Assembly: GCA_046728195.1 (NCBI GenBank) | Contig: JBKPEC010000001.1 | Span: forward strand, 1 to 43,004 | Reading direction: 5' to 3' | Source: Actinomycetota bacterium | Lineage (GTDB): Bacteria; Actinomycetota; Thermoleophilia; Gaiellales; Gaiellaceae | Length of the DNA: 43,004 bases | In this document: piece by piece, positions 8,119-42,981 of the stretch | Layout of the letters: every line of letters begins with the position of its first letter | How positions within the stretch are numbered: the stretch's first letter is position 1 | Translations under genes and position numbers: made by a program | Notes under the pieces: model-generated | The model's input: the letters and a program-made list of their open reading frames with translations, nothing else | Told to the model about the DNA's origin: nothing | The model's database searches: none

Positions 8119-8973
8119 ATGGCTGAGGCCGTCGAACAGACCTGCTACCGCCACCCGGACCGCGTCACGGGACTCTCGTGCTCGGAGTGCGGCAGGCCGA
8201 TCTGCACCGAGTGCATGACCATCGCACCGGTCGGCATCCGCTGCCCCGAGCACGCCGGGAGGCCGCAGGGCGTGCAGCGCATGACGCGCGGCGTCCAGCG
8301 CGCGAGCTTCGAGGGGGCCGGGGCCAAGGTCACCAAGATCCTGATCGGCGTCAATGTGGCCGTATATGTCGCGGAGCTGATCCAGGGCGGCGGCGTCTAC
8401 GGCACGGGCAGCACGATCTACGAGAAGGGCGTCCTCTGGGCGCCGTTCATCGCGAATGGGGACTACTGGCGGCTGATCACCGCCGCGTTCCTCCACTACG
8501 GGCCCTTCCACCTGCTGCTGAACATGCTCGGGCTCTACTGGTTCGGCTCGCTGCTGGAGCAACGCATCGGCTCGGGCCGTTTTCTCCTGATCTACGTCGT
8601 CTCCGGGCTTGCAGGATCAGCCGGCGCGCTCGTCGCCAGCCCTCTGAACCCCACCGTCGGCGCCTCGGGCGCGATCTTCGGGATCCTGGGCGCGGGCTTG
8701 GTGCTGGAGCAGCAGAGGGATTACGTCTTCGGCGGAAGCGCGCTAGGCGTCATCATCGCCAACCTCGTGCTGACGTTCTTCTGGCCCGGCATCTCGATCG
8801 GCGGACACATCGGGGGCCTGATCGGCGGGGGCGCGTCGATGTTCGCTCTCTCCCGCTTTGGCCGCGGGCACGCCGTGTACGGCCGCCCCGGCCTGCTCGG
8901 AATCGCAGGCATCGTGGCGGTTGGAGTCCTGTCCGTCGTCGTTGCGTACTGGAAAGCCCGGGGCTACGCCTAA
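8119..8973 (+). CDS. Rhomboid family intramembrane serine protease with an N-terminal zinc-ribbon
   Basis: 284 aa. The N-terminus carries a CxxH...CxxC...CxxC ribbon (CYRHPDRVTGLSCSECGRPICTEC). Rhomboid motifs FLHYGPFHLLLNM and GASGAIFG are present, along with multiple TM helices. Confidence 0.88.
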   Translation: MAEAVEQTCYRHPDRVTGLSCSECGRPICTECMTIAPVGIRCPEHAGRPQGVQRMTRGVQRASFEGAGAKVTKILIGVNVAVYVAELIQGGGVYGTGSTIYEKGVLWAPFIANGDYWRLITAAFLHYGPFHLLLNMLGLYWFGSLLEQRIGSGRFLLIYVVSGLAGSAGALVASPLNPTVGASGAIFGILGAGLVLEQQRDYVFGGSALGVIIANLVLTFFWPGISIGGHIGGLIGGGASMFALSRFGRGHAVYGRPGLLGIAGIVAVGVLSVVVAYWKARGYA

Positions 8974-12279: not shown

Positions 12280-14922
12280 TCAGCCGCCCGCGGCCACGTA
12301 AGCCGGAGCACCACTCGCTGCGAGTGCGGCCTGCGCGGCGGCAAGCCGCGCAACCGGCACGCGGTACGCAGAGCACGACACGTAGTCGAGCCCGAGCTCA
12401 TGACAGAACGCGACCGACTTCGGCTCGCCGCCGTGCTCGCCGCAGATGCCCATCTTCAGCTCCGGCTTCGTCGCCCGTCCTCGCTCGACGCCGATCCGCA
12501 TCAGCTCGCCGACACCGTTCACGTCCAGCGTCTCGAACGGATTGTGCTCGAGGACTCCCTCCTCGAGGTAGAACGTGAGGAACTTCCCCTCCGCATCGTC
12601 ACGGGAGAAGCCGAGCGCGGTCTGAGTCAGGTCGTTCGTGCCGAACGAGAAGAAGTCCGCTTCCTCTGCAATCTCATCCGCGCGGAGGCAGGCACGGGGC
12701 AGCTCGATCATGGTGCCGCAGAGGTACTCGACCTCGGGCGCCTCCTCTTCGGCAACGCGGATCGTCAGCTCGCGTAAGCGAGTCAGCTCCTCACGGAAAC
12801 CGACGAGGGGATGCATGATCTCGACGAGCGGTGCATCACCGGTCCGCTCGTCGACTGCGCGCGCCGCCCGGATGATTGCCCGCACCTGCATCTCGTAGAT
12901 CTCCGGCCACTGCAGGCCAAGCCGGCAGCCGCGCGTGCCGAGCATCGGGTTGGCCTCCTGCAGCTGGCGAACGCGCCGCCGCATGCGTTCGTCCGTCGCC
13001 TGCTCGACCGGCGGCAGGAACTCGTGGAGCGGTGGGTCGAGCAGGCGGATCGTCACCGGTAGCCCCGTCATCGCCTCGAAGATCGCCTCGAAATCGCCCT
13101 GCTGCATCGGCAGCAGCTTGTCGAGCGCCCGGCGCCGGTCTTCCTCGCCGTCGGCCAGGATCATCTCGCGCACCACGGGGAGCCTGTCCTCCGCCATGAA
13201 CATGTGATCGGTCCGGCAGAGCCCGATGCCCTCGGCGCCGAACTCCCGCGCCTTGGCCGCGTCCTCCGGCGTGTCGGCGTTCGCGCGCACCCGGAGACGC
13301 CGGTGCTCGTCGCCCCAGCCGAGCACGGTCACGAGGTCGTCGTTCACCTCCGGCGGAACGAGCGGCACCTCGCCGATGATGACGGCCCCCGTCCCGCCGT
13401 CGATCGTGAGCATGTCGCCCTCCGACAGCTGTTGACCGCCGAGGGTGATCGTACGCTGGTCGAGATCGATCGAGAGCGCCTCGCAGCCGGCCACGCAGGG
13501 TTTGCCCATGCCGCGCGCGACCACCGCCGCGTGTGAGGTCATCCCGCCGTGGGCGGTGAGGATCCCGGCCGCCTGGATCAACCCGTGGATGTCGTCGGGT
13601 GTCGTCTCCCAGCGGACGAGGATCACGCTCTCGCCGCCCCGGCCGCGCTGCTCGGCGGTGTCCGCGTCGAGCACGATCTTCCCGCAGGCGGCTCCCGGCG
13701 AGGCGTTGAGCGCCTTGGCCGCGCCCTCCCACTGCGCGGTCGGGTCGAGCATCGGGTGCAGAAGCTGGTCGAGCTCCGCGGGGTCGATCCGCCTGATCGC
13801 GTCCTCACGGGAGATCAGCCCCTCGCCCACCATGTCGACCGCCGCCTTGACCGCCGCGGCCGCGGTTCGCTTCGCGGAGCGCGTCTGCAGGAGGTAGAGC
13901 TCATTGTCCTCGACCGTGAACTCGATGTCCTGCATGTCGCGGTAGTGCTCCTCGAGCCGGCGCATCGTCTCCAGCAGCTGGTCGAAGGCTCCGGGAAGCT
14001 GGTGCTGCATCTCGGCCAGCGGCTGCGGCGTCCGGATGCCGGCGACGACGTCCTCCCCCTGTGCGTTCGGGAGGAACTCGCCGTACAGACCTTGCTCGCC
14101 CGTCGAAGGATCGCGCGTGAAGGCAACGCCTGTTCCCGACTCGTCGCCCTTGTTGCCGAAGACCATCTGGACGACGTTGACGGCCGTGCCGAGGTCGTCG
14201 GCGATGTCGTAACGGCGGCGGTACACCTTCGCGCGTGGCGCGTCCCAGGAATCGAACACCGCGCGTACCGCACGCGTCAGCTGTTCGCGCGCGTCCTGAG
14301 GAAAGTTCCGTCCCGTCTCCTCCCGATAGATCGCACGGTACGTGTCGACGAGCTCGCCGAGGTCCGCCGCCGACAGGTCGACGTCCTGCGCAATACCGCG
14401 CGCCTTCTTCAGATCCGTGAGCGCCTGCTCGAAGCGATGCGGGTCGATTCCGTCGACGACTTCGCCGTACATCTGGATGAGCCGCCGGTACGAGTCGTTT
14501 GCGAAGCGCGCATTCCCCGTTGCACGGCCGAGACCCTGCACCGTCTCGTCATTGAGGCCGAGGTTCAGGATCGTGTCCATCATCCCGGGCATCGAGACCG
14601 CTGCACCCGATCGCACCGAGACGAGGAGCGGAGCGTTCGCGTGACCGAAGCGCTTGCCGGTCTTCCTTTCGAGCGCGGCGAGGTGCCGGTCCACCTCCTC
14701 GTCGAGCCCGTCGGGCAACGCCTTGCCGTTCGCCATGTAGGCGCGGCAGGCGTCCGTGGTGATCGTGAACCCGGCGGGCACCGGCACGCCGAGCTGCGTC
14801 ATCTCCGCGAGCCCGGCACCCTTGCCGCCGAGGAGCGCCGCCCCTCCGTCGGACGGCTCTTCGAAGTCGAAGACGTAGCGGGGCCGGTTCAAGGCGGTGA
14901 TCCTCTCACAAATGCCCTGCAA
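12280..14922 (-). CDS. ppdK: Pyruvate, phosphate dikinase
   Basis: The protein is full-length PPDK-like. It shows LLGGKGAGLAEM, the phospho-His motif GGMTSHAAVVARG, and C-terminal GICGEHGG. The listed start is TTG 14922. TTG 14892 is preceded by GAGAGGA at ~8 nt and gives MNRPRYVFDF, so it may be the true start. Confidence 0.95.
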   Translation of the reverse strand: MQGICERITALNRPRYVFDFEEPSDGGAALLGGKGAGLAEMTQLGVPVPAGFTITTDACRAYMANGKALPDGLDEEVDRHLAALERKTGKRFGHANAPLLVSVRSGAAVSMPGMMDTILNLGLNDETVQGLGRATGNARFANDSYRRLIQMYGEVVDGIDPHRFEQALTDLKKARGIAQDVDLSAADLGELVDTYRAIYREETGRNFPQDAREQLTRAVRAVFDSWDAPRAKVYRRRYDIADDLGTAVNVVQMVFGNKGDESGTGVAFTRDPSTGEQGLYGEFLPNAQGEDVVAGIRTPQPLAEMQHQLPGAFDQLLETMRRLEEHYRDMQDIEFTVEDNELYLLQTRSAKRTAAAAVKAAVDMVGEGLISREDAIRRIDPAELDQLLHPMLDPTAQWEGAAKALNASPGAACGKIVLDADTAEQRGRGGESVILVRWETTPDDIHGLIQAAGILTAHGGMTSHAAVVARGMGKPCVAGCEALSIDLDQRTITLGGQQLSEGDMLTIDGGTGAVIIGEVPLVPPEVNDDLVTVLGWGDEHRRLRVRANADTPEDAAKAREFGAEGIGLCRTDHMFMAEDRLPVVREMILADGEEDRRRALDKLLPMQQGDFEAIFEAMTGLPVTIRLLDPPLHEFLPPVEQATDERMRRRVRQLQEANPMLGTRGCRLGLQWPEIYEMQVRAIIRAARAVDERTGDAPLVEIMHPLVGFREELTRLRELTIRVAEEEAPEVEYLCGTMIELPRACLRADEIAEEADFFSFGTNDLTQTALGFSRDDAEGKFLTFYLEEGVLEHNPFETLDVNGVGELMRIGVERGRATKPELKMGICGEHGGEPKSVAFCHELGLDYVSCSAYRVPVARLAAAQAALAASGAPAYVAAGG

Positions 14923-14988: not shown

Positions 14989-15495
14989 TTACGCGCCCTT
15001 GCCGACCTTGATGATCGGGCAGTTCAGTCTGATCGAGGTCGACCGCTCGGTGAGCATGCCCTTCTTCTCGAATTTGTTCACCGCCGTGTCGCTCGTGATC
15101 AAGGCAGGAGTCGCGCTCGACTTCCAGGTCAGAATCGTTTCCTTCCAGATCGGCGAGTAGCTCGACTCACCGGGTTCGGAGCCGAAGACGGCAAGCTGTC
15201 CGGCCGCCGCCTTGCCCTGGACCAGGTAGATCTCCGGCGCCGACTGCAGCGGTACCGACTTGAGCACCGGTGCGTAGTTGATGTGCATCGCAGTCGCCTC
15301 CGCCTTGTCGGAGACATCGGTGCTGAGGTAGGTGTCTTTATGGCCGTCGTAGTAACCGTGGAAGGCGGGTCGGTTGACGGCGGTCTGCGGCCCCATCCGC
15401 GGGCCCGCGCTCATAAGCGAAGAGGCGTACGCGCCCGCTGCGGCAGAGAGGGCGGCGGACGTCAACAGGCAGGCTGGCAGGATTCCGCGCTTCAT
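14989..15495 (-). CDS. Secreted hypothetical protein (168 aa)
   Basis: The ORF was trimmed to ATG 15495, which is preceded by GGAGGTGacg (a strong SD). It has a signal peptide (MKRGILPACLLTSAALSAAAGAYA). The mature part is globular (HGYYDGHKDTYLSTDVSDKAEATAMHINYAP...). No family was recognised. Confidence 0.65.
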   Translation of the reverse strand: MKRGILPACLLTSAALSAAAGAYASSLMSAGPRMGPQTAVNRPAFHGYYDGHKDTYLSTDVSDKAEATAMHINYAPVLKSVPLQSAPEIYLVQGKAAAGQLAVFGSEPGESSYSPIWKETILTWKSSATPALITSDTAVNKFEKKGMLTERSTSIRLNCPIIKVGKGA

Positions 15496-15652
15496 CGTCA
15501 CCTCCGTGAGGGAGATCGATTGCGTAAGCAGTACGCACCTGCGCGTGCCCCGGTTTGCAGACTGCCGCGACGCCCGCAAGGGCTCGGGCGGGCTTTCAAC
15601 CGGGCGTTCGGAATCGGGCCCGGCGCGTACCGGCGCAAGCCGACCGCGAGCG

Positions 15653-16144
15653 CTAGTGCGCAGGTCGCCGCGTTCGACGGCGCGGCTGTGCCGTCCCCGT
15701 AAGCCCGCGCGACCTCGCCCACTCCTCGTAGGACGGCACCTGCTCGCCGACCGTCCAGAGGTAGCGGTAGGCGCCGTGATCACCGAGGAACTTGAAGCGT
15801 TTTCGCAGATCCTTCACGGTCGACTCGAAGTCCTCGTGCGCACGGAGATACCGCTTGAAGCCCTTGTACTCCTCGTCCAACTCGAGCATGGTCTCGGCGT
15901 TTTCGATTGTTGCCTCGACCTTGCTCCGACTGCGGATGATGCGCTCGTCCTCGAGGAGCTTGTCCACGGCTTTCGGTGTCATGCGCGCGACCCGTTCGGG
16001 ATCGAAGTCGTGAAACGCGCGCCGGATGTCCGCCCACTTCGCTTCGACGACCCGCCCTGAGAGCCCGGCTTCGAAGCCGATCCTGCTCAGGACGTCGAGG
16101 TAATCGGCGAGCGACTTCGGCCGGATCTGCTTAGGCGGCATCAA
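15653..16144 (-). CDS. Tag-like (DNA-3-methyladenine glycosylase I / Adenine_glyco family) helix-hairpin-helix protein, divergent
   Basis: 163 aa. GFEAGLSGRVVEAKWADIRRAFHDFDPERVARMTPKAVDKLLEDERIIRSRSKVEATIENA aligns by eye with E. coli Tag (QQAGLSWITVLKKRENYRACFHQFDPVKVAAMQEEDVERLVQDAGIIRHRGKIQAIIGNA). The N-terminal CGW...YHDxEWG region and the C-terminal His/Cys zinc ligands of Tag are not seen. Confidence 0.6.
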   Translation of the reverse strand: MMPPKQIRPKSLADYLDVLSRIGFEAGLSGRVVEAKWADIRRAFHDFDPERVARMTPKAVDKLLEDERIIRSRSKVEATIENAETMLELDEEYKGFKRYLRAHEDFESTVKDLRKRFKFLGDHGAYRYLWTVGEQVPSYEEWARSRGLTGTAQPRRRTRRPAH

Positions 16145-16507
16145 ACAAGCTCAGCGCCGCTCGAACAGGGCGGCGAAGGCCGGGCGTCGAAGAAGACACG
16201 CATCTCCAGGATCGTTCCGCCCTTAACCGTAGCCCATTCCGCCACGTTCGAGGTGCCCGCGGGCGTGTTGGTATGGAGGTCGCAGATCGTGACGACATCG
16301 TTCTCGTCCGCGAATACCTTCTTGACGTCCGTCCCGGTGACGATCTGCGCGAGCTTCCCCACCGACGACATGTAATCGTCTGTTCTCGAACTCCTCGATC
16401 CGCCCTACGAAATGAAGATCATCAGCGAGAAGCGACCGAGCTGTCTGGACGTCACCGCTCCCGAATGCCCGCTGATATCGCTCGACGACCTCGGCTGCAC
16501 CAGCCAT
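16141..16507 (-). pseudogene. SnoaL/NTF2-like protein gene interrupted by a 1-nt frameshift
   Basis: The N-terminal part is MAGAAEVVERYQRAFGSGDVQTARSLLADDLHFVGRIEEFE (frame A, ATG 16507). The C-terminal part is DDYMSSVGKLAQIVTGTDVKKVFADENDVVTICDLHTNTPAGTSNVAEWATVKGGTILEMRVFFDARP (frame B, stop at 16141). Together they make one typical ~121-aa SnoaL-like protein. The span is 367 nt (3n+1). The shift must lie between 16372 and 16404. Confidence 0.6.
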
Positions 16508-16604
16508 GCGAACTCCCTTCGCCCGAATCACCTGGCCAGGCCCTGGCCCGCTTCGAGCATGGGCCAGCCCGACCGCAACCGCAATCACCTCGGATCCACA
16601 ACCG

Positions 16605-17282
16605 ATGTCCGATCGTCCATTCATGTCTGAGCGCCAGATCGTCGCGATGGGTGGCTATCCCGACGATGCGCTCCTCGCCTACGTGCTCGGGCTCACACGC
16701 GGGCGCAAGGTGCTCTGCGTCGCAACGGCGTCGCGGGAGGATCCCGGCCTGACCCTCGCCTTGTACGAACGCCTCCACGGTCGGGCCGAGGCGACGCACG
16801 TGGATTTCTTTCCCTGGCCTCCGGCGGACCTCCGACAGCTTGTCCTCGAGCACGACCTGATCCTCGTCACGGGCGGCAACACCGCCAACGCGCTCGCGAT
16901 CTGGCGCACGCACGGCTTCGACCTGATCCTGCGTGAGGCGTGGGAGCAAGGCGTGCTCCTGACGGGCTGGAGTGCGGGGATGATCTGCTGGTTCGAGCAG
17001 GCGGTCACCGACTCGTTCGGACCGGACCTGGCGGCGCTCGACTGTCTCGGCTTTCTTCGCGGGAGCGCCTGTCCGCACTACGACGGGGAAGAGCTGCGAC
17101 GACCCGTCTACACACGACTCGTGAGCGAAGGGCTCGCGCCGGGCGTCGCCGCCGACGACGACGTCGCGTTGCATTACGTCGGCGAAGAGCTGCGCGAGGT
17201 CGTGACCTCGCGCCCAGGCGCGACCGCCTATCGTGTCGATGCGGAGGGAGAGACGCCGCTCGAGGCTCGACTCGTCACCTGA
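16605..17282 (+). CDS. Peptidase E-like S51 family (class I glutamine amidotransferase-like) dipeptidase
   Basis: RQIVAMGGY...VLCVATAS...DLILVTGGNTANALAIWRTHGFDLILREAWEQGVLLTGWSAGMICWFE is typical of peptidase S51 (nucleophile Ser in GWSAG). The start is chosen at ATG 16605; ATG 16623 is also possible. The listed 16506 start is an extension. Confidence 0.75.
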   Translation: MSDRPFMSERQIVAMGGYPDDALLAYVLGLTRGRKVLCVATASREDPGLTLALYERLHGRAEATHVDFFPWPPADLRQLVLEHDLILVTGGNTANALAIWRTHGFDLILREAWEQGVLLTGWSAGMICWFEQAVTDSFGPDLAALDCLGFLRGSACPHYDGEELRRPVYTRLVSEGLAPGVAADDDVALHYVGEELREVVTSRPGATAYRVDAEGETPLEARLVT

Positions 17283-17451
17283 CCGCGTCGACGCTGCGCC
17301 GGCGACGCGCGCGGAACTCCGCCGCCCACGCAAGCCAGCGGAGCCCCAGCCAGATCGGTGTCAGGATGACGTAAAAGAGGACGACAGCCACGCCGAGCAC
17401 GCCCCACCAGGTGGCCCAGCGCCACCACGGAACGGGCGGCTTCGGTCTCAC
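17275..17451 (-). CDS. Possible 58-aa Trp-rich single-pass membrane peptide translationally coupled to the PPDK regulatory protein
   Basis: It is below the 60-aa track cutoff. The GTG start overlaps the upstream TGA stop (GTGA at 17448-17451). Translation: VRPKPPVPWWRWATWWGVLGVAVVLFYVILTPIWLGLRWLAWAAEFRARRRRSVDAVR. There are 8 Trp, one hydrophobic helix and a basic tail. Third-position G+C is high. Confidence 0.35.
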   Translation of the reverse strand: MRPKPPVPWWRWATWWGVLGVAVVLFYVILTPIWLGLRWLAWAAEFRARRRRSVDAVR

Positions 17452-24689: not shown

Positions 24690-24812
24690 GTGCTAGACGT
24701 CCTCGGGATTCTTCTCATGCTGGTCTTCTGCGCGGTCGTGATTGCGCTGGCGGCCGGAGTCACCTGGCTCGTGGTGAGGTACTCACCGGCGAAACGCCCC
24801 AGTCAGTCCTAG
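24690..24812 (+). CDS. Possible 40-aa membrane peptide
   Basis: GTG 24690 to TAG 24810-24812 encodes VLDVLGILLMLVFCAVVIALAAGVTWLVVRYSPAKRPSQS, with one hydrophobic helix. Caveat: the hairpin GGTGAG-gta-CTCACC (24773-24787) lies inside it and could instead be the ald terminator. Confidence 0.25.
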   Translation: MLDVLGILLMLVFCAVVIALAAGVTWLVVRYSPAKRPSQS

Positions 24813-25933
24813 ACCGCCGAGAGCGGCAGGACGTCCTCGAGCGGCTGGTAGTCGAGCCCGTGGGCGTCGGCGACGGCTTCGTAGGTCACCTTCCCATCGA
24901 CCACGTTGACCCCACGCGCGAGCTCCGGATCGCGTGCAACCGCTTCGGCGAGTCCGAAGTCGGCGATCGCTTCCACGTAGGGCAGCGTCGCGTTCGTCAG
25001 CGCCTTCGTCGACGTGATCGGCACCGCGCCCGGCATGTTCGCGACGCAGTAGTGGGTGACTCCTTCGACGGTGTAGACGGGCTCGCTGTGCGTCGTGGGA
25101 CGGGAGGTCTCGGCGCAGCCGCCCTGGTCGATTGCCACGTCCGCCAGCACCGAACCGTCCTTCATACCGGCGACCATCTCGCGGGTGATCAGCTTCGGCG
25201 CGACCGCGCCGGGGATCAGGACCGCGCCGATGACGACGTCTGCGCCGCGCACCGACTCCTCGATCTGCAGGCTCGACGACATGACGAGGCTCACGCGTCC
25301 CGACAGGACCTCCTCGAGATGGCGCATGCGATCGATCGAGCGCTCCAGGATGGTGACGTTCGCGCCCAGTCCAATCGCGATCACGGCGGCGTTGTAACCG
25401 ACCATGCCGCCGCCGATGACGAGGACTCGACCCGGAGCGACTCCAGGAACACCGCCGAGCAGCAGTCCTCGGCCCCCGAGCGGCTTTTCCAGGAAGTAGG
25501 CGCCGGCCTGGGCCGCGAGCCGTCCGGCGATCTCGCTCATCGGCGCGAGGAGCGGCAGCGCGCCGGAGTCGGTCTCGACTGTCTCGTACGCGACCGCGGT
25601 TATCCCGCTGTCGAGCAGTGCGAGCGTCAGGGGCTCGTCCGCCGCGATGTGCAGGTACGTGAAGAGGACGAGCCCGTCGCGCAGCCAGCCGTACTCCGAT
25701 CGAATCGGCTCCTTCACCTTGAGCAGCAGCTCCGCCTCGGCCCAGACGTCGTCAACCGAGCCGATGCGCGCGCCGGCCGCCTCGTACGCGGCGTCGGAAA
25801 ACGCGCTCCCTTCGCCTGCACCGGTTTCGATGATGACGTCGTGACCGCGCTGCCCCAGCTCCCGTGCCCCGGCGGGCGTGAGGGCGACGCGGTACTCGTC
25901 GGCCTTGATCTCCCTGGCAACCCCGACCTTCAC
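24809..25933 (-). CDS. ald: Alanine dehydrogenase
   Basis: 374 aa with a GTG start. MKVGVAREIKADEYRVALTPAGARELGQRGHDVIIETGAG... is present along with the NAD-binding motif VIGGGMVG. It is full-length Ald-like. Confidence 0.95.
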   Translation of the reverse strand: MKVGVAREIKADEYRVALTPAGARELGQRGHDVIIETGAGEGSAFSDAAYEAAGARIGSVDDVWAEAELLLKVKEPIRSEYGWLRDGLVLFTYLHIAADEPLTLALLDSGITAVAYETVETDSGALPLLAPMSEIAGRLAAQAGAYFLEKPLGGRGLLLGGVPGVAPGRVLVIGGGMVGYNAAVIAIGLGANVTILERSIDRMRHLEEVLSGRVSLVMSSSLQIEESVRGADVVIGAVLIPGAVAPKLITREMVAGMKDGSVLADVAIDQGGCAETSRPTTHSEPVYTVEGVTHYCVANMPGAVPITSTKALTNATLPYVEAIADFGLAEAVARDPELARGVNVVDGKVTYEAVADAHGLDYQPLEDVLPLSAV

Positions 25934-28719: not shown

Positions 28720-30366
28720 CTACGCCGAGGCGGCTGCGAGCGCCGAGCGCTCGCGCGAACGGTTGAGCGCTGCGCCGACAAACTCGCGGAAGAGCGGGGC
28801 CGGCCGTGTCGGGCGCGACTTGAACTCGGGATGGAACTGGCTGGCGACGAACCATGGGTGATCGGGCAGCTCGACGATCTCGACGAGCCTCCCGGCCTGG
28901 AACGTCCCCGACACCACGAGGCCGGCCTCGACGAGCGCGGGTCGGTAGTGGTTGTTGACCTCGTAGCGATGGCGGTGGCGTTCGTGCACGACCGGCTCGC
29001 CGTAGGCCTCGTAGGCGCTCGTGTCCTCTTCGAGCTCGACCGCCTGTGCCCCCAGTCGCATCGTCCCACCAAGATCCTCGATCTCCTTCTGCTCGGGCAG
29101 CAGGTCGATCACGGGGTGCGGTGTCTCGGGATCCATCTCCGTCGAGTTCGCGCCATCGAGACCGAGCACGTTGCGCGAGAACTCGGAGACCGCGACGTGC
29201 ATGCCGAGACAGATGCCGAGGTACGGGATCCGCTGCTCGCGCGCGACCCGACAGGCGAGGAGCTTGCCTTCCCAGCCGCGGGAGCCGAAGCCCCCGGGCA
29301 CGAGCACGCCGTCGACCTCGTCCAGCAAGTGGGTGGCCTCCTCGAGCGACATCCCCTCGGCGTCGACCCACCGCACGTTCACCGTGCAGCCGTGATGCGC
29401 ACCCGCATGCTTGAGCGCCTCGTGCACCGAGAGATAGGCGTCCTGCAGCTTGACGTACTTTCCGACGAGCGCGATCTCGACGGCCGACTCGCTGCGCTGG
29501 ATGCGCTCGGTCAGATCGAACCATTCGCTGAGATCTGCCTGACCGGGCGGCAGGCCGAGCTTCTCGGCGACCAGTCGGTCCAGCCCTTCAGCCTTGAGCC
29601 TCGACGGCACGAGATAGACGTCGGGAACATCCGGGCTGGTCACGACCGCGTCGTGCTCGACGTCGGCGAAGAGCGCGATCTTCTCGCGGATCTCCGGAGA
29701 AAGTTCCTCGTGTGAGCGGCAAACGACGATGTCCGGGTGGATACCGATGCGGCGCAGCTCGTTCACCGAGTGTTGCGTCGGCTTCGTCTTCAGCTCGCCC
29801 GCGGCCTCGAGGAATGGCACGAGCGTGACGTGCAGGTAAAGGACGTTTTCCGGACCGACCTCGCGCCGGAACTGCCGGATCGCCTCGAGGAACGGCAACG
29901 ACTCGATGTCTCCGACCGTGCCGCCGATCTCGCTGATCACGACATCGGTCGGAGTCGACACCGCACTCGCACGGATACGCGTCTTGATCTCGTTCGTGAT
30001 GTGCGGGATCACCTGCACGGTCGCGCCCAGGAACTCGCCCTTGCGCTCCTTGCGCAGGACGGAGTCCCAGATCGCGCCGGCCGTGTGGCTGGCCGCGCGT
30101 GTCAGGTTCTCGTCGATGAAGCGCTCGTAGTGGCCGATGTCGAGATCCGTCTCTGCGCCGTCTTCCGTGACGAAGACCTCCCCGTGCTGGAACGGGCTCA
30201 TCGTCCCCGGATCGACGTTGAGATACGGGTCGAACTTCTGCGCCTGAACCTGCAAGCCGCGCGCCTTCAGCAGTCGGCCGAGCGAGCCGGCGACGATTCC
30301 CTTTCCCAGCGCGGACACGACGCCACCCGTGACGAACACGTACTTCGTCGGTCCCGTTGCGCTCAC
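28720..30366 (-). CDS. pyrG: CTP synthase
   Basis: The ORF is trimmed to GTG 30366, which overlaps the upstream stop (GTGA). It reads [24 protein letters not shown]...[18 protein letters not shown]...GICLGMH (glutaminase Cys). Confidence 0.95.
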
Positions 30367-31571
30367 GTGCGTCCTAGACGGTCGAGCCAGCGGACACCGG
30401 GCGTGCGCTCGATCCAGGCGCCGAGTGACGTTCGTTCTCCGAGGAAGGTGAGGCCCGCAAGGGCGCCGATCGCAACCCATCGGCCTCGTCCCGTGAATCG
30501 CTTCACGGAATTCAAGCCTAGCACGGCGCCAAGCGCGTTCGACCCGCCGTCTCCGAGCATCGCCATCTCTCGAAGATCGTAGGGAAGAAGCAGGACGGCG
30601 ACCCCGAGCGGTGCACGCAGCGGAACCGCGGCAAGCAGATACGCCTTCAGCGCGCGTCCGGGGCGTGTGTCGAGCTGGTTGAGAGCGTTCGCAGCGAGGC
30701 CGACGAGCAACGCGCCCGAGAGTTTCCGCGTCGCGACCAGTCCCACCGCAGGAATGCCGAGCAGTTTGAGGACGCCGGTCGTGCGGCCCGTCCGGACGTG
30801 CGCCAGCAACCCGCGCTCGGGCCCGCTCCAAAGGTCGTCTGCCAACCCGAGCGCGGCCACGATCGCAACAGCGGGACCATTCGTGGCGCCCACCTTCCAG
30901 CCGACGAGCGGCAGACGCAGCCCGCGGAAGTTGATCCCGAGCGGCCCGCACGCATAGAGGCTGTCGCGCAGCTGCCGCCCGCGATGGACGAACCCCCTGA
31001 ACGTCCGCCCGGTGGGCCGGTGCCGAAGAGGCAACTCGGTTTCCCGTATCCGGAGCCCGGCGCGCGCAGCGTCGATCGTCATCCGCACCTCGCACCCGAA
31101 CCCGGCGGCCACCGGAAAGCAGGCCGCGCGCGCCGCCGCGGAAAGCGCGCGCTGGCCTGAGAGCGGCTCGCGTGGCTCGAACCCGGAGTGCACAGCGATC
31201 AAGCTCCGCGCGACGAGCTTCGCCAGGCCGAAGCCGCCGCCGACCCGCTCCGCGAACGCGGCCACGTTCAGATCGACGCCTTCCTCGAGCAAAGGCGCAA
31301 GCTCGCCCGACAGGTCCGCGTCGCAGAGCAGAAGCGCGCCGGGAGGCGCCGCCCGCTCCACCGCCGAGAGCGCCTGGCCCTTCCCGCGTCGCGGCAGGCG
31401 CAGCACGACCGCGCCCGCCTCTTCGGCGACGTCGGCGGTCCGGTCCCGCGAGCCGTCGTCGGCGACGAGGACCTCTGCATCGGGAAAAGCTCGACGTAAC
31501 GCCCTGACCGTGTTGGCGATCACCGCTTCCTCGTCGCGCGCAGCGACGAGGATCGTGAGTGGCTCAACCAC
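30363..31571 (-). CDS. Fusion protein: N-terminal GT-A glycosyltransferase (GT2/GT81-like) plus a C-terminal minimal MraY/WecA-like (polyprenyl-phosphate sugar-phosphate transferase-like) membrane module
   Basis: 402 aa. The N-terminal half has ILVAARDEE...[12 protein letters not shown]...LLCDADL (DxD) and PLSGQRALS...[12 protein letters not shown] (GpgS-like). The C-terminal half has ~5-6 hydrophobic segments with LGLADDLW (DD), [13 protein letters not shown] (N-x2-N-x2-D) and [12 protein letters not shown] (GDxGS), in the same order as PNPT signature motifs. Confidence 0.7.
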
Positions 31572-37540: not shown

Positions 37541-38308
37541 TTACGACGTCCGCGTGGCCAGGCCGTCGACGATGTCGACGAGAACCGTCGTGTCGGCCGT
37601 GACCTGCGCAAGACGCTCGCGCGCTCGAGTCGCCGCCTCGTCCGCGAGACGGCGCGCGCCGTCTTCGCCGTGGCTCAACACGTATCCGTCGGCGTCGAGA
37701 ATGTCGTCGACGATCTGAAAAAGCAGGCCGAGCTCGTCTCCGAACGCACGCCATTGGCCCTGGTCGCGCTCGGGCACGTCTGCCGCCCATAGCGCCAGGC
37801 CCACCGATGCGGAGAAGAGACAGCCGGTCTTGAGCTTGTGCAGCGCTACCTCGTCAGGGGCCGAGCCGGTGATGTCGAGGTACTGGCCGCCGATCATGCC
37901 CAGCGTCGCGCGCGCGAGCTCGCGCCCCGCCTCGGGTCTCGGATAGGAGAGCGCGAGCCTGAACGCCTCCGCGAGCAGCGCGTCACCGGCCAGCACGGCA
38001 ATCGCCTCGCCGTACTCGGACCAGACGGATGCGCGACCGCGACGCTCGGCGTCGTTGTCGAGCGCGGGCAGATCGTCGTGCACGAGGGAGAAGGCATGCA
38101 CCAGCTCGACCGACGCCGCCACGGGCAGCGCGACCTCTGCTTCCACACCGGCCGCCTCGGCGGTCGCGAGGCAGATCACCGCGCGCACCCTCTTCCCGCC
38201 GACGAGCGCGTAGCGGACAGACTCGGCCTGTCCGTGGAGCTCCGGCGTCAGGGCGAGCTCGCCGAGGTAGCCCTCGACGAGGACGCGAAGCTCTTCAGGG
38301 CTCCGCAT
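37541..38308 (-). CDS. Polyprenyl diphosphate synthase (FPP/GGPP synthase, IspA-like)
   Basis: 255 aa. The first Asp-rich motif is LVHDDLPALDNDAERRG and the second is QIVDDILD. GGAGG sits 3 nt upstream of ATG 38308. Confidence 0.86.
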   Translation of the reverse strand: MRSPEELRVLVEGYLGELALTPELHGQAESVRYALVGGKRVRAVICLATAEAAGVEAEVALPVAASVELVHAFSLVHDDLPALDNDAERRGRASVWSEYGEAIAVLAGDALLAEAFRLALSYPRPEAGRELARATLGMIGGQYLDITGSAPDEVALHKLKTGCLFSASVGLALWAADVPERDQGQWRAFGDELGLLFQIVDDILDADGYVLSHGEDGARRLADEAATRARERLAQVTADTTVLVDIVDGLATRTS

Positions 38309-38498
38309 CGACCTCCGCCTGCCGTTTGGCCTTCTGCAGCTCGTCCTCGATCGCCTTGCTTAGCTCGGCGAGCTCGGTGAGGACCTCCAGCGCCTTCTCC
38401 GCGTCGTCGGCCTGCGAGAGCTGCTCGAGCTCGGCGCGCGTCTTTTCGAGACGGGCGAGGAGCTCCTCCGCGCGCGCGAGCGCATCCTCGGTGCTCAC
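38295..38498 (-). CDS. Small acidic coiled-coil protein in the xseB position (XseB-like?)
   Basis: 67 aa. The GTG start overlaps the nusB stop (GTGA). Sequence: STEDALARAEELLARLEKTRAELEQLSQADDAEKALEVLTELAELSKAIEDELQKAKRQ. Only the first ~15 residues resemble the XseB consensus, and no xseA is present in the window. Confidence 0.45.
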   Translation of the reverse strand: MSTEDALARAEELLARLEKTRAELEQLSQADDAEKALEVLTELAELSKAIEDELQKAKRQAEVDAEP

Positions 38499-38875
38499 GA
38501 GACCTGCTCCCTCACGATCCGTCCCAGGATTCCGTTCACCAGCCGTGCAGCATCGTCGCTGGCATAGCGCTTTGCCAACGCAACCGCCTCGTTGATCGCC
38601 ACCTCGTCCGGAACATCGTCACCGTCGAGCTCGTGCAACGCGATGCGCAGGATGTTGCGCTCGATCGCACCAAGCCGGTCGGCGGTCCAGTCATCGGCGG
38701 CCTCGGTGATCCGGCGATCGAGCTCAGCCGCTTCAGCCGCAACCGCCTCCGCCGTCTCCTGCGCGAACGGGTCCACTTCGCCCTCGTACAGCGACGCGAG
38801 TGGCTGTCCGGTCACGTCCCACTGATAGAGAAGGAAAAGCGCAGTCCGCCGCGCCGCTCGCCGGCCGCCGCTCAT
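38495..38875 (-). CDS. nusB: Transcription antitermination factor NusB
   Basis: The ORF is trimmed to ATG 38875, which overlaps the asp23 stop (ATGA). It reads RRAARRTALFLLYQWDVTG...ERNILRIALHEL...EAVALAKRYASDDAARLVNGILGRI. Confidence 0.88.
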   Translation of the reverse strand: MSGGRRAARRTALFLLYQWDVTGQPLASLYEGEVDPFAQETAEAVAAEAAELDRRITEAADDWTADRLGAIERNILRIALHELDGDDVPDEVAINEAVALAKRYASDDAARLVNGILGRIVREQVS

Positions 38876-39171
38876 TCGACTTCCTCCACCGAGACGTCGA
38901 TCGCGTCGATCGTCACCTTGCACATCGTCGTCAACACGTCGGCCACGCGTTCCTGGACACGACGAGCAACGTCCGGCAGCACCACCCCGTAGCGCGCGGC
39001 GAGCTCCAGGCGCACCCGCGCACGTTCTTGCGTGACCTCGATCTCCAGACGGCGTCGTCCACGGCGGACGCGGGCGCCGCCCACCTCCTCGGCCGCCTGC
39101 GTGACAAGATTCGCAAGCACCGGCGCCGTGACGGTGATCGTTCCGCCCGCCTCGTGCAGAACGAGACTCAT
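38872..39171 (-). CDS. Asp23/Gls24 family envelope-stress protein
   Basis: 99 aa. ITVTAPVLANLVTQAAEEVGG...VVLPDVARRVQERVADVLTTMCKVTIDAIDVSVEEV is a typical Asp23 fold sequence. It overlaps the accC stop. Confidence 0.8.
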   Translation of the reverse strand: MSLVLHEAGGTITVTAPVLANLVTQAAEEVGGARVRRGRRRLEIEVTQERARVRLELAARYGVVLPDVARRVQERVADVLTTMCKVTIDAIDVSVEEVE

Positions 39172-40517
39172 ACGGAGCCCACCGCGGCGAGCCGTGTCTC
39201 CTCGAGAAACCGCGTGGAATACGCGCCCGAGCGAAAGGCATCGCTGCCAATGATCTCGAGAGCGGCCTCGCGCGTCGTGGGGACCCCGCGCAGTTCGAGC
39301 TCGCCGAGCGCACGCAGGCAGCGCTCGATCGCCTGCGGCCGGTCCTCGTCCCAGACGATGAGCTTGCCGATGAGTGAGTCGTAGTAAGGCGGGATCACTC
39401 CTCCCTCCTCGATGTGCGTGTCGAGTCGCACGCCGGGCCCGAGCGGCGGGCGGAAGCGCTCGACGACCCCCGGCGCCGGTGCGAAGCCACGCGCCGGATC
39501 CTCGGCATTGAGCCGCACCTCGATCGCGTGGCCGCGGCGTTCGGCGCGGCCGGTGCGCCGCAGTTGCCGACCGGCGGCGATCCGCAGCTGCTCGCGCACG
39601 AGGTCGACACCGGTCACGAGCTCGGTCACCGGATGCTCGACCTGGAGGCGCGCGTTGAGCTCGATGAAGGAGTAGGAGCCGTCGGGCGCGAGCAGGAACT
39701 CGAACGTCCCGGCATTGAGGTAGGCGATCGCACGCGCCGCGCGGGCGACGTCAGCCTCGATCGCCTCGCGGGTCGATTCGTCGAGCGCCGGCGAAGGCGA
39801 CTCCTCGATCAGCTTCTGATGCCGCCGCTGGATCGAGCACTCCCGCTCGCCCAGCGTCAGCACGCCGCCGTCGGCGTCGCAGAGCACCTGCACCTCGACG
39901 TGCCGGGCGGGGATCACGAGCTTCTCGAGGTACAGGCTGCCCTCCCCGAAGGCGGCGTCGGCCTCGGCCGCCGCCCGCGCGAACGCATCGTCGAAGTCCT
40001 CCGGCTGCTCGACCAGGCGCATGCCCTTGCCGCCTCCCCCCGCGACAGCCTTCAACAGGACCGGATAGCCGACCTCTGCCGCGGCGTCGCGCGCGTCCTG
40101 AAGCCCGACCGCCTCGGTTCCGGGAACCAGCGGCACGCCGGCCTCGGCCAGCTCCCGCTTGGCTTCAACCTTGTCCCCCATCCGCGCCATCACGTCCGCA
40201 TCGGGCCCGATGAACACGAGATCATTGGCTTCGCACGCATGGACGAAGTCGGGGTTCTCCGACAGGAAGCCGTAGCCGGGGTGAACCGCCTCGCAGCCGG
40301 TCGTCTCACCGGCCGCGACGACCGAACCGATGTTGAGATAGCTGTCGGCAGCCGGAGGCGGACCGACGCAGACGGCGCGGTCGGCGATGCGCGTGTGCAG
40401 CGCGCCCGCGTCTGCGGTCGAATAGACGGCGACGGCTTCGATCCCAAGCTCGTGCAGGGCGCGGATGACCCGGACCGCGATTTCTCCGCGGTTCGCAACC
40501 AGGACGCGCGAGAACAT
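39168..40517 (-). CDS. accC: Biotin carboxylase (AccC-type)
   Basis: 449 aa. MFSRVLVANRGEIAVRVIRA...HPGYGFLSEN...KAVAGGGGKGMR...ECSIQRRHQKLIEE...ELNARLQVEHPVTE are canonical ATP-grasp biotin carboxylase motifs. Confidence 0.95.
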   Translation of the reverse strand: MFSRVLVANRGEIAVRVIRALHELGIEAVAVYSTADAGALHTRIADRAVCVGPPPAADSYLNIGSVVAAGETTGCEAVHPGYGFLSENPDFVHACEANDLVFIGPDADVMARMGDKVEAKRELAEAGVPLVPGTEAVGLQDARDAAAEVGYPVLLKAVAGGGGKGMRLVEQPEDFDDAFARAAAEADAAFGEGSLYLEKLVIPARHVEVQVLCDADGGVLTLGERECSIQRRHQKLIEESPSPALDESTREAIEADVARAARAIAYLNAGTFEFLLAPDGSYSFIELNARLQVEHPVTELVTGVDLVREQLRIAAGRQLRRTGRAERRGHAIEVRLNAEDPARGFAPAPGVVERFRPPLGPGVRLDTHIEEGGVIPPYYDSLIGKLIVWDEDRPQAIERCLRALGELELRGVPTTREAALEIIGSDAFRSGAYSTRFLEETRLAAVGSV

Positions 40518-40519
40518 CG

Positions 40520-42340
40520 CTACAGGGCGTCCAGCGGACGCGCGACCACCGGCTCCAGCTCGAAGAGGAGTTGCCCGTATTCGACCGGCTGGGCGTTTTC
40601 GACGTGGATCGTGCGCACGATTGCCTCGACGTCGGCCTTCACTTCGTTCATCAGCTTCATGGCCTCGAGAATGCAGAGCGTCTGTCCCGGCCCGACCGGT
40701 TGGCCCTCCTCCACGAACGGCGCCGCGCCGGGCTCCGGCGCGCGGTAGAACGTCCCCACCATCGGCGCCTCGACCCGCACGAGCCCGTTCGGGGACGGCG
40801 CAAGCGGCTCGAACGAGGTCTCATCCTCCGTCGCGGCGAGCGGCGACTCGCTCGGCGGCGCGATGAAGTCCCGGTCCTCGGTGCGACGGACGGAGACCCG
40901 CATCCCGGCCTCCTCGATCGTGATCTCGCCGATTCCCGTTTCCTGCACGATGCGGACGAGCTCGCGGATCCGCTCGGCACGCGCCTGATCGACGCCGCCC
41001 GTCACGAGGGCCTCGTCGCCGCTCGATCGACCGCGAATCGTCCGGAGCAGGGGCTCCGCTTCGTCGCCGAAGAGCCCGAGCAGAAGCAGCTCCTCCTCGC
41101 TCGACGCGAGCCCTGCGGCCTGGGCGCGAATTTCCTGCAGCGGCGGGGCCGTTGTGTCCTCGGCAGAGTCCGGGTCCGCCGTCAAGGCAACTGCGCGGGT
41201 GACGCTCTTCTCGATCGGCGCCGGCGGCGTTCCGAGGCGTCCCTCGACGAGCGCGCGCAACTCGTCCACGACCACGGAATAGCGGCTCGCCGACAGGACG
41301 TTCAGCAGCGCCTGTGAGCCGAGAACCTGTCCGATCGGAGAGGCGAGCGGCGGCCAGCCGACCTCCGAACGGATCCGGACGAGCTCGGCGATCGTCTCGT
41401 CGAGCCGGTCGCCCGCAACCTGCGCGCGCAGGTTCGCGTCGAGCGCGGTCACGAGGCTCGCCGGCAGGTCGTGCTGCGCCGCGCGCACGGCGATGCGAGG
41501 AGCCAGTGGCGTCACCGGCTCGTCGCCGATGTGCTCGTCGACGACGTCGGCGGCCTCCCACAACCTCGAGACGTCGATGTCGCAGTCGAGCCCGAGCCCG
41601 CCGAGCGCCTCGGCGAGCGCCTCCCCGGACACGCGGTGCAGCGTGAGCGCGATCGGATAGACCGCCGACGCGATTAGGTCGGCCCCCGCGCGGGCGGCTT
41701 CGAGCGCGGCCGCGAGCGCGTTGCCCCCCGAGCCCTGGCAGTAGATGCCGACCGGCAGGCCCGTCTCCTCGCGCAGGGCCGTGACAAGCTCGTGCGCACG
41801 GTGCGGCTGCAGCGATCCCGTCGGATCGTGCAGGAGCACGCGAACGGCGCCGAGATTCGGCAACTCGCTGGCCTGTGCCATCAGCGGGTAGGTCTCGCCG
41901 GTCCGCCCCGGGCTGTAGACGAGCCCCGCCTCGAAGTCGCCGCCGGCCCTGGCGACGGCATCCGCCGCCTCGCGCAGGTTGGAGACGTCGTTGAGTGGAT
42001 CGTGCAAGCGAAAGACGTCGATGCCGTTCGCAGCGGCAGAGGCGATGAACCGGCGGATGAAGTCGTTGTCGACCGGTCGCGAGCCGACGAGCAGGCGGCC
42101 GCGGAGCGCCAGCGCCAGCGGGGTTTCGACACGCGCCTTCAAGGCGCGGATCCGCTCCCAGGGGCTCTCGACGCCCCTGCGGACGGCACTGTCGAAGCAA
42201 CCCCCACCGGAGACCTCGAGATATGCGAAGCCCGCCTGATCGAGGATCTCTGCGATCCTGAGCTGCTCCGACGTCGGCAACCGGCCCGCAAGCGGCTCCT
42301 GTCCGAGCAGGCGGACAGTCGTGTCGACGAGCGCCGGCAT
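40520..42340 (-). CDS. Fusion protein: OadA/PycB-like carboxyltransferase domain (HMGL-like TIM barrel + PYC_OADA, with substituted catalytic motifs) plus a complete AccB-type biotin carboxyl carrier protein
   Basis: 606 aa. Residues 1-~440 align by eye with oxaloacetate decarboxylase alpha / pyruvate carboxylase B. Residues ~445-606 form an AccB: IRELVRIVQETGIGEITIEEAGMRVSVRR, then a linker, then PMVGTFYRAPEPGAAPFVEEGQPVGPGQTLCILEAMKLMNEV. There is a 2-nt gap to accC. Confidence 0.85.
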   Translation of the reverse strand: MPALVDTTVRLLGQEPLAGRLPTSEQLRIAEILDQAGFAYLEVSGGGCFDSAVRRGVESPWERIRALKARVETPLALALRGRLLVGSRPVDNDFIRRFIASAAANGIDVFRLHDPLNDVSNLREAADAVARAGGDFEAGLVYSPGRTGETYPLMAQASELPNLGAVRVLLHDPTGSLQPHRAHELVTALREETGLPVGIYCQGSGGNALAAALEAARAGADLIASAVYPIALTLHRVSGEALAEALGGLGLDCDIDVSRLWEAADVVDEHIGDEPVTPLAPRIAVRAAQHDLPASLVTALDANLRAQVAGDRLDETIAELVRIRSEVGWPPLASPIGQVLGSQALLNVLSASRYSVVVDELRALVEGRLGTPPAPIEKSVTRAVALTADPDSAEDTTAPPLQEIRAQAAGLASSEEELLLLGLFGDEAEPLLRTIRGRSSGDEALVTGGVDQARAERIRELVRIVQETGIGEITIEEAGMRVSVRRTEDRDFIAPPSESPLAATEDETSFEPLAPSPNGLVRVEAPMVGTFYRAPEPGAAPFVEEGQPVGPGQTLCILEAMKLMNEVKADVEAIVRTIHVENAQPVEYGQLLFELEPVVARPLDAL

Positions 42341-42378: not shown

Positions 42379-42981
42379 ATGGAGGTGCAGGAGCTACGGC
42401 CCGGGTTGTGGCGCTGGACGGCGCCTCATCCCGAGTGGGAGCACGCCGAGAACTGGGGGCCCGACGTCGCCTCGATCTATGCGGAGCTGCCGCAGGCGAT
42501 CGTCGTCATCGACCCGCTCGTCCCGGCGGGCGAGGACGAGCGCTTCTGGTCCGCCCTCGACCGCGATGTCGAGCGACTCGGCCGGCCCGTACACGTTCTG
42601 CTAACAGTGCACTGGCACGAGCGGAGCGTGGCAGCGGTCCTCGACCGCTATCGCGCCACGTTGTGGCGGCCGGAGGAGAAAGGCGAGCTGCCCGAAGGAG
42701 TGCTCGCGGAAGTCGTGCGCGGCAGCGACTGGGTGGAGGCGCTCTTCTACCTCGAGCCGCACCATGCGCTCGTCACCGGCGACCTTCTGATCGGCGCGAA
42801 GGGCGGCATCGAGCTGCCGGTGCGCTGGTTTCCGAAGGGCGAGCAGCAGTGGGCAGAGGAGACGCTCAAGCCCGAGCTACGCGAGCGCCTCGACAAGCTG
42901 CCGATCGAGCTCGTCCTCGTGTCGCACGGCGAACCGGTGCTCAGCGAGGGACGCGCGGCGCTCGACCGCGGGCTGTCCTAG
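42379..42981 (+). CDS. Small MBL-fold-like (metallo-beta-lactamase superfamily-like) protein with a degenerate metal motif
   Basis: 200 aa. GLWRWTAPHPEW...AIVVIDPL...VLLTVHWHERS...LVSHGEP resembles short actinobacterial MBL-fold proteins. The HxHxDH motif reads HWHERS here. Confidence 0.55.
   Translation: MEVQELRPGLWRWTAPHPEWEHAENWGPDVASIYAELPQAIVVIDPLVPAGEDERFWSALDRDVERLGRPVHVLLTVHWHERSVAAVLDRYRATLWRPEEKGELPEGVLAEVVRGSDWVEALFYLEPHHALVTGDLLIGAKGGIELPVRWFPKGEQQWAEETLKPELRERLDKLPIELVLVSHGEPVLSEGRAALDRGLS

Follow-up and report, generated by a model that had tools for sequence, protein, structure and literature searches.

What kind of biotin carrier is encoded directly upstream of accC in a soil actinobacterium of the family Gaiellaceae, when the gene in the accB position specifies 606 amino acids, the first ~440 of which resemble a carboxyltransferase of another enzyme family? 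We address this question for a 43,004-nt stretch of DNA (hereafter the window; positions 1 to 43,004 of contig JBKPEC010000001.1, GenBank assembly GCA_046728195.1), in which the gene occupies positions 40520..42340 of the minus strand. The open reading frame (ORF) begins with ATG, contains no ambiguous bases and stops 2 nt from the ATG of accC. Its product, here called CT-AccB, joins a carboxyltransferase (CT) domain like those of OadA, PycB and transcarboxylase 5S, its metal ligands lost, to a C-terminal module with the sequence features of the AccB of acetyl-CoA carboxylase (ACC). The explanation we favor, at a probability of roughly 60%, is that the protein serves AccC as a functional AccB and that its ancestral pyruvate CT domain has turned into a non-catalytic module, which would act as a scaffold or as a ligand- or biotin-docking site.

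Two modules in one chain

Pfam places HMGL-like (PF00682) at residues 3-267, PYC_OADA (PF02436) at 289-433 and Biotin_lipoyl (PF00364) at 523-595, and the first two exceed their gathering cutoffs. The N-terminal part consists of a putative pseudo-carboxyltransferase TIM barrel of the HMGL-like/DRE-TIM fold (residues 1-270, 41531..42340) and the helical "funnel" of the PYC_OADA domain (residues 289-433, 41042..41476). It is followed by a predicted AccC-interacting segment corresponding to the N-terminus of AccB (residues 455-490, 40871..40978, delimited by alignment to E. coli AccB), a flexible linker rich in Pro, Ala and Glu that is marked by low values of the predicted local distance difference test (pLDDT) and low identity (residues 491-522, 40775..40870), and a biotinyl domain with the AccB "thumb" (residues 523-597, 40550..40774), all on the minus strand. 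The biotinyl lysine is Lys562 (40655-40657), in the motif EAMKLMN. The similarities to OadA (E = 6e-62) and to E. coli AccB (E = 4e-24) are both more than chance.

Residues 457-596 score 118.3 bits against TIGR00531, the equivalog model for the biotin carboxyl carrier protein (BCCP), over model positions 5-155 of 156 and above the cutoff of 115.2, and residues 455-593 align with E. coli AccB in its complex with biotin carboxylase (BC; 4hr7_B). Within this alignment, residues 455-490 match the N-terminal stretch AERIRELVRIVQETGIGEITIEE of 4hr7_B (chain residues 23 onward) and are predicted to bind AccC. The match to 1bdo and 1a6x is ungapped through both the thumb (TPSPDAKA there, APEPGAAP here) and the biotinyl hairpin (EAMKMMN there, EAMKLMN here, with K562). 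The thumb is a feature specific to ACC carriers. Judged by these features, the carrier module is a genuine ACC-type AccB.

In bacterial two-subunit pyruvate carboxylase (PC), the alpha subunit of ~471 residues has a terminal Ala-rich helix that forms a BT-like domain, and in the beta subunit CT and BCCP are separated by a four-stranded BT-like sheet that contains an HGE motif (PMC5059739). The accC gene of the window (39168..40517, minus strand) encodes a 449-residue biotin carboxylase with three BC domains, which scores 604.6 against PRK08591 (cutoff 597) and ends ...STRFLEETRLAAVGSV, without the Ala-rich BT helix. Between the CT domain and the carrier of the fusion lie the AccB N-terminal segment and the linker, with neither a BT-like sheet nor an HGE motif. 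The alignment to 5ks8_C, the PycB of M. flagellatus, breaks off after residue 443 and picks up again only with the carrier, which scores 14 bits against the PycB carrier. Because AccC lacks the BT helix and the carrier is of the AccB type, the pair departs from two-subunit PC in every feature compared except domain order.

An earlier sequence-only reading had placed the ORF in the accB slot of an accB-accC-asp23-nusB arrangement, with a 2-nt gap to accC, and had described a complete AccB with its biotinyl Lys562 behind ~440 residues of OadA/PycB/5S-type CT, the whole being neither an ordinary PycB nor an ordinary AccB. Each part holds up: the first in the ORF and its junctions, the second in the TIGR00531 score and the 4hr7_B alignment, the third in the agreement of Pfam, HMMER and Foldseek, and the last in the failure of both the PycB-type cutoffs (below) and the two-subunit PC features.

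The same reading had allowed that the long ORF might be a join of two genes. An intact protein of 601-607 residues is, however, carried by more than 120 sequence clusters (at least 87% identity) on independent JGI, ENA and NCBI contigs, several of them from named Gaiellaceae, and near-identical or 100% identical copies of the gene lie on many independent contigs, the recurrence extending to hundreds. Scanning one genome per species, we found that 17 species-level genomes of the Gaiellales type (60-72% identity) share both architecture and synteny, and that the ligands are substituted in 17/17. That the ORF is a product of misassembly or frameshifting, or a pseudogene in decay, is next to inconceivable given this recurrence and a ratio of nonsynonymous to synonymous substitutions (dN/dS) of about 0.05-0.1 in every domain, even though some family representatives are indeed frameshifted fragments. 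One of these, P0251 (200 residues), was rejected as a stand-alone AccB because its first 30 residues look like an out-of-frame translation of upstream CT sequence; P0235 and P0195 are likewise frameshifted read-throughs from the C-terminus of the fusion into the N-terminus of accC. Such fragments could be taken for stand-alone AccB proteins or for architectures not seen before.

Metal-ligand positions, fold and selection

The divalent-metal site of live CT domains is made up of an Asp on strand β1, a carboxylated Lys and a His-x-His motif, and in the fusion all four ligands are replaced. For OadA we take Asp17, His207 and His209 to be the metal ligands besides Lys178. Lys178 has been described together with the Zn in the active site of OadA (PMC2881705), and the ligand set in L. 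lactis PC is His732, His734, Asp534 and carboxy-Lys703 (PMC9581989). In both HMMER and MAFFT alignments, Leu11 (42308..42310, on the minus strand like the codons that follow) stands at the position of OadA Asp17, His171 (41828..41830) at that of carboxy-Lys178, and Tyr200-Cys-Gln202 (41735..41743; Tyr200 at 41741-43 and Gln202 at 41735-37) at those of His207 and His209. Relative to 2nx9, 5ks8 and 1rqb, RDAHQS becomes RLLGQE (residues 5-15 span 42296-42328), LKDMAG becomes LHDPTG and HLHCHSTAG becomes GIYCQGSGG. The Arg, Gln and Arg that contact substrate are kept as R10, Q14 and R80.

The register was checked with phmmer against PDB sequences, which pairs residues 5-401 with V. cholerae OadA (2nx9), 6-443 with M. 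flagellatus PycB (5ks8) and 9-432 with transcarboxylase 5S (1rqb, E = 2e-50), and with a MAFFT alignment in which the OadA fragment numbers as D17/K178/H207/H209; three independent alignments agree. HMMER thus reproduces the register that the sequence-only reading had drawn by eye, profile and structure-based comparison concur with its claim that all four ligands are substituted, and its codon coordinates for K562, H171, Y200, Q202 and residues 5-15 are all correct. The metal ligands of the CT domain are lost, and from its sequence we infer that the domain is catalytically dead, which supports the earlier picture of a biotin carrier tethered to a putative pseudo-carboxyltransferase.

Could misalignment have made an ordinary two-subunit PC (PycB with PycA), or an OadA, merely look dead? 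The best full-length NCBIfam model for the fusion is PRK09282, "pyruvate carboxylase subunit B", and homologs are labeled oxaloacetate decarboxylase alpha by JGI. The PRK09282 score, however, is 384.3 bits, below its cutoff of 402, TIGR01108 reaches 322.8 where 756.5 is required, and the remaining pycB, oadA and 5S models stay far under their cutoffs. Database names for homologs are inconsistent (OadA alpha, PycB, AccB, 2-oxoglutarate carboxylase large subunit), the NCBI pipeline using "acetyl-CoA carboxylase biotin carboxyl carrier protein". With the alignments in agreement and the OadA numbering reproduced, and with a 449-residue AccC devoid of the BT helix beside a thumb-bearing carrier remote from that of 5ks8, we regard an ordinary enzyme of either kind as very improbable indeed.

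Every Gaiellales-type ortholog in which the N-terminus is present has Leu or Val at position 11, and the key positions read R-L-Q / R / H / Y-Q in 119/120 close homologs. The replacements themselves are not random: two new His-Asp-Pro motifs (RLHDP and LLHDP) recur across the clade together with YCQG. Such a pattern, in a domain under strong constraint, could indicate a remodeled enzyme in which His113, His171, Tyr200, Gln202 and Glu15 form a new metal site or a metal-free one, used for a different carboxyl transfer or decarboxylation with the tethered biotin. The replacement residues vary within the clade, however, which makes a remodeled catalytic site less likely. Position 171, His in 119/120 close homologs, holds Asn, Leu or Asp in some of the more distant members of the clade and His113 is replaced by Asp in some, so that a His113/His171 metal site was rejected as a feature of the clade as a whole. 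Across an alignment of 114 sequences, the column frequencies are 0.66 for H171, 0.86 for H113, 0.75 for Y200 and 0.83 for Q202; the ligand-replacing residues vary more than neighboring structural residues, and neither His113, His171 nor Tyr200 is invariant. Moreover, most orthologs have Ala or Gly in place of the catalytic Thr of the PGG..T loop, and to our knowledge all characterized members of the TIM-barrel metallolyase superfamily need a divalent metal. We consider a remodeled enzyme quite improbable.

An AlphaFold2 model built on 85 sequences, both ligand-substituted and intact, has a mean pLDDT of 73.8, with barrel strands β2-β7 at 80-95 and values below 50 over residues 487-515 in the Pro/Ala/Glu-rich linker; the segment at residues 455-490 is modeled as a helix and a hairpin. 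Compared at the fold level with Foldseek, the model has PycB 5ks8 as its top match, and target-normalized TM-scores are 0.78 for 2nx9, 0.77 for 1rqb and 0.76 for 5ks8_E. As modeled, the CT fold is kept.

We calculated dN/dS by the Nei-Gojobori method on close pairs only, namely the loci L005/L015 and L001/L011 and the window against sister loci L082 (92% amino acid identity) and L083 (88%); among the loci at 60-72% identity, apparent dS reaches a plateau at ~0.4-0.5 (GC content at third codon positions, GC3, ~0.9), and ratios calculated there were discarded as meaningless. For the ligand-less TIM barrel, dN/dS is 0.054 between the window and L082, 0.060 between the window and L083 and 0.046 between L082 and L083. 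The values for the same three pairs are 0.035, 0.104 and 0.061 in the biotinyl domain and 0.079, 0.109 and 0.107 in accC, and the PYC_OADA domain lies at 0.035-0.13. Within the clade, identity is 0.71 in the barrel, 0.73 in the BCCP and 0.27-0.37 in the linkers, the Pro/Ala/Glu-rich linker being the least conserved at 0.27-0.33. Strong purifying selection on the CT domain, as tight as that on an essential enzyme, argues for a functional pseudoenzyme and not for decay. Indeed, the domain combines the loss of catalytic residues with a fold and sequence maintained under purifying selection across species, as a pseudoenzyme would, its inactivity being predicted.

Relatives, origin and possible role

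The CT-AccB fusion is not confined to the Gaiellaceae organism, being older and more widespread than the sequence-only reading had supposed. Fusions with an intact Asp/Lys/His/His set, 34-37% identical to the window protein, occur in Clostridia (Desulfosporosinus, Thermincola, Syntrophomonas and others) and Coriobacteriia (Adlercreutzia, Eggerthellaceae), where the gene has the same accC-asp23-nusB continuation; in D. fructosivorans it comes right after the spoIIIA operon, which is the accB site of B. subtilis. The closest intact clade (P0135), from metagenome-assembled genomes labeled "Thermoleophilia bacterium" or "Actinobacteria bacterium" by NCBI, is 37-39% identical, keeps all key residues in 115/115 sequences and has the order efp-[fusion]-accC-nusB-xseB-ispA-dxs-tlyA-nadK-recN. 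The survey of related genomes that the sequence-only reading had proposed thus recovers the same fusion, ligand-intact versions included.

Degenerate versions are also widespread. When full-length representatives at 50% identity were split by the presence of the AccB thumb, the ligand tetrad was damaged in 21/27 thumb-bearing fusions versus 1/14 thumb-less PycB/OadA proteins (Fisher p = 2.6e-5), a degenerate fraction that may be inflated, the representatives having been ranked by similarity to our ligand-substituted query. The degenerate tetrads are LHYQ, SKDD, DMHH, DMHR, DKHN, DTHR, DNHR, DKSK, DKNQ, DSQQ and -CGC, and the named degenerate fusions come from Gaiellales, Bacillota and Candidatus Hydrogenedentota, at least three phyla. 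Genomic context was obtained for four degenerate representatives, three of which lie directly upstream of a biotin carboxylase gene: P0187 (SKDD) in the same efp...nusB-dxs-tlyA-nadK synteny, P0199 adjoining BioY with FabZ-like and FabD-like genes nearby, and P0172 with no further informative neighbors. The fourth, P0155, adjoins a biotin-protein ligase, and its contig stops before the downstream gene.

Several distinct degenerate groups appear in a neighbor-joining tree of CT domains, the topology of which we set aside because long degenerate branches probably attract each other. The differing substitution patterns, together with shared synteny, point to more than one degeneration event. Two loci, L085 (P0187 lineage, SKDD, with a faint Pfam match to HMGL-like) and L089 (P0323 lineage, all ligands intact), share the order pilO-hyp-aroC-aroK-aroB-aroQ-pepP-efp-[fusion]-accC; their comparison suggests that the CT site was lost a second time, independently, in a related actinobacterial lineage.

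In the explanation we favor, the C-terminal 150 residues would be a normal ACC-type carrier biotinylated at Lys562. The AccB N-terminal segment would dock on the co-translated AccC, which would carboxylate the biotin with ATP and bicarbonate, and carboxybiotin would then be passed to a CT encoded elsewhere to give malonyl-CoA. The N-terminal 440 residues would be the relic of a CT-AccB fusion whose AccB/AccC pair also fed an in-cis pyruvate CT, an ancestral form that may persist, ligands intact, in other Thermoleophilia, in Clostridia and in Coriobacteriia. Since no other AccB-type gene stands at the accB locus, the ancestral pair would have fed the ACC carboxyltransferase in trans as well. 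In the Gaiellales lineage the metal center would have been lost, Asp being replaced by Leu, carboxy-Lys by His and the two His by Tyr and Gln. Carboxyl transfer involving pyruvate or oxaloacetate would then no longer be possible, and the folded domain would have been retained as a non-catalytic module, most likely a dimerizing scaffold that places two carriers on the AccC dimer. We take the scaffold as the default since the CT domains of the family are obligate dimers, as in OadA (PMC2881705) and M. flagellatus PC (PMC5059739); a docking or ligand site may persist in the highly conserved β1-β4 half of the barrel. The cis activity would have been lost in Gaiellales and separately elsewhere, the domain having stayed or become indispensable for a structural or regulatory role in the carrier.

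Several observations weigh against this account, beside the possible inflation of the degenerate fraction. A CT partner of the AccA/AccD or PccB type is absent from the 43-kb window, which is the extent of the search; two Pfam runs covering 20 further genes of the window yielded neither AccA, AccD, PccB nor PC. Within the same limits, there is no second accB. Residues 1-17, which carry the altered β1 motif, have pLDDT values below 50. Finally, no part of the protein is better conserved than the β1-β4 half of the barrel (mean top-residue frequency 0.82 in the 114-sequence alignment), which exceeds even the biotinyl domain (0.73), and the substrate contacts Arg10, Gln14 and Arg80 are invariant in the clade, a combination that hints at more than a passive scaffold.

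The last point is what an allosteric sensor would lead one to expect. The former pocket would bind pyruvate, oxaloacetate, another 2-oxoacid or carboxybiotin without turnover and gate the carrier, linking malonyl-CoA synthesis to central-carbon status. Arg10, Gln14 and Arg80 are the carboxylate/enolate contacts of live CT domains, residues D6, T7, L12 and P16 and the motifs SGGG and ALRGRFLVG are invariant as well, and the barrel is under stronger selection than accC. The conserved residues could equally be structural, however, and the SKDD, DKSK and -CGC lineages have also lost these Arg/Gln positions, which implies that ligand sensing is not the general reason for retention of the domain. 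We see a sensor as possible but unlikely. A bolder proposal would make CT-AccB an unrecognized third architecture of biotin-dependent carboxylases, in which one AccB/AccC pair serves a pyruvate CT in cis and an acetyl-CoA CT in trans, and in which the cis CT has become, in Gaiellales and independently in other phyla, a regulatory pseudoenzyme that binds a 2-oxoacid or carboxybiotin through an Arg10/Gln14/Arg80 half-site and gates fatty-acid synthesis. This we hold to be distinctly unlikely. Literature searches aimed at the fusion, or at a dead CT domain on AccB, found no prior account of either.

Downstream of accC the genes are tightly packed: accC and asp23 overlap by 4 nt, as do asp23 and nusB. 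The asp23/yqhY-family gene (PF03780) lies at 38872..39171 and nusB, identified by its 126-residue translation and by PF01029 on its ortholog in L081-L083, at 38495..38875, both on the minus strand. Beyond nusB follow an xseB-like gene, ispA, tlyA, nadK and recN, and in sister contigs aroC-aroKB-aroQ-pepP-efp precede the fusion. The accB-accC-asp23-nusB order is kept in 30 loci, and the longer order efp-[fusion]-accC-asp23-nusB-xseB-ispA-tlyA-nadK-recN matches the accBC-yqhY locus of B. subtilis (PMC5437119). This Firmicutes-type cluster is found here in Actinomycetota, in Gaiellales and other Thermoleophilia (window 38295-42340, minus strand, and L001-L015, L081-L085 and L089); the accBC-yqhY operon organization has been stated not to be conserved in Actinobacteria (PMC5437119).

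Divergent from the fusion is a 200-residue ORF (42379-42981, plus strand) with no Pfam match at E <= 0.01 and a TVHWHERS stretch vaguely like the HxHxDH motif of metallo-beta-lactamases; an ORF of the same size, also without a Pfam match, stands at the equivalent site in sister contigs L081-L084. Elsewhere on the minus strand of the window are an 880-residue pyruvate phosphate dikinase (PPDK; 12280-14922), a regulatory kinase-pyrophosphorylase of PPDK or phosphoenolpyruvate synthase (PF03618, 17448-18329) some 2.5 kb away, and alanine dehydrogenase (24809-25933), which together show a capacity to handle pyruvate in an organism with a CT-AccB that lacks the pyruvate carboxyltransferase ligands. 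The region between PPDK and its regulator (14989-17448) has a lower GC content (0.66-0.67), no convincing long gene and several overlapping ORFs with atypical codon-position GC; a 163-residue ORF within it (15653-16144, minus strand) matches methyladenine glycosylase partially (model positions 33-125 of 177). Two further minus-strand ORFs, of 729 residues (8970-11159) and 365 residues (6327-7424), have coding-like GC3 (0.84-0.85) and no Pfam family at E <= 1e-4. A 791-residue ORF (28720-31095, minus strand) matches CTP synthase only from residue 251, its 5' part overlapping a 402-residue ORF (30363-31571, minus strand), and pyrG itself probably begins ~750 nt further downstream than the first start codon.

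For annotation, the names "oxaloacetate decarboxylase alpha subunit" and plain "AccB" are both wrong for these proteins, and metabolic reconstructions of Gaiellales, which are abundant in soil, would be led by them to a spurious anaplerotic or Na+-pumping enzyme. Intact, partly degenerate and apparently fully dead versions at one orthologous locus form a natural evolutionary series, usable to study how a carrier system sheds one activity while keeping the domain. The series also raises the questions of whether one BCCP serves both pyruvate and acetyl-CoA carboxylation and of what organizes AccB-AccC complexes outside E. coli. Should the domain prove regulatory, the committed step of fatty-acid synthesis would be subject to a new kind of control point.

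Comparison with known systems

The carrier module resembles the AccB of E. coli and B. subtilis (4HR7 chain B, 1BDO, TIGR00531) in its AccC-binding segment, Pro/Ala linker, thumb and EAMK(L/M)MN motif and in its site just upstream of accC; unlike an ordinary AccB of ~150-180 residues, the fusion has 440 extra N-terminal residues with a 5S/OadA/PycB-type fold. M. flagellatus PycB (5KS8), its best whole-chain structural match, likewise carries barrel, funnel and carrier on one chain beside a separate BC, but has the four ligands that are replaced here, a BT-like sheet with HGE, and a BC of ~471 residues with an Ala-rich helix in place of 449 without one, and lacks the AccB-type carrier. OadA (2NX9) and 5S (1RQB) are the closest sequences among solved structures and share the Arg, Gln and Arg contacts. 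Unlike OadA, the fusion has Leu, His, Tyr and Gln for Asp17, Lys178, His207 and His209, and it has neither a gamma-subunit association domain nor OadB/OadG neighbors.

The nearest counterparts are the intact CT-AccB fusions (the P0135 clade, Desulfosporosinus fructosivorans, Thermincola, Adlercreutzia), for which we found no characterization. At 34-39% identity they share the domain order, the thumb-bearing carrier, the 449-residue AccC and the syntenic slot; unlike the window protein, they keep Arg-Asp-Gln, Arg, Lys and His-x-His. In plants, the BADC proteins are non-biotinylated look-alikes of BCCP that modulate the heteromeric ACCase. The fusion is comparable in that a catalytically incompetent relative, here a putative one, would be kept as a non-catalytic part of ACC. 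In the plant case the dead part is the carrier and is a separate protein, whereas here the carrier is intact and the apparently dead part is the fused CT domain of another enzyme family.

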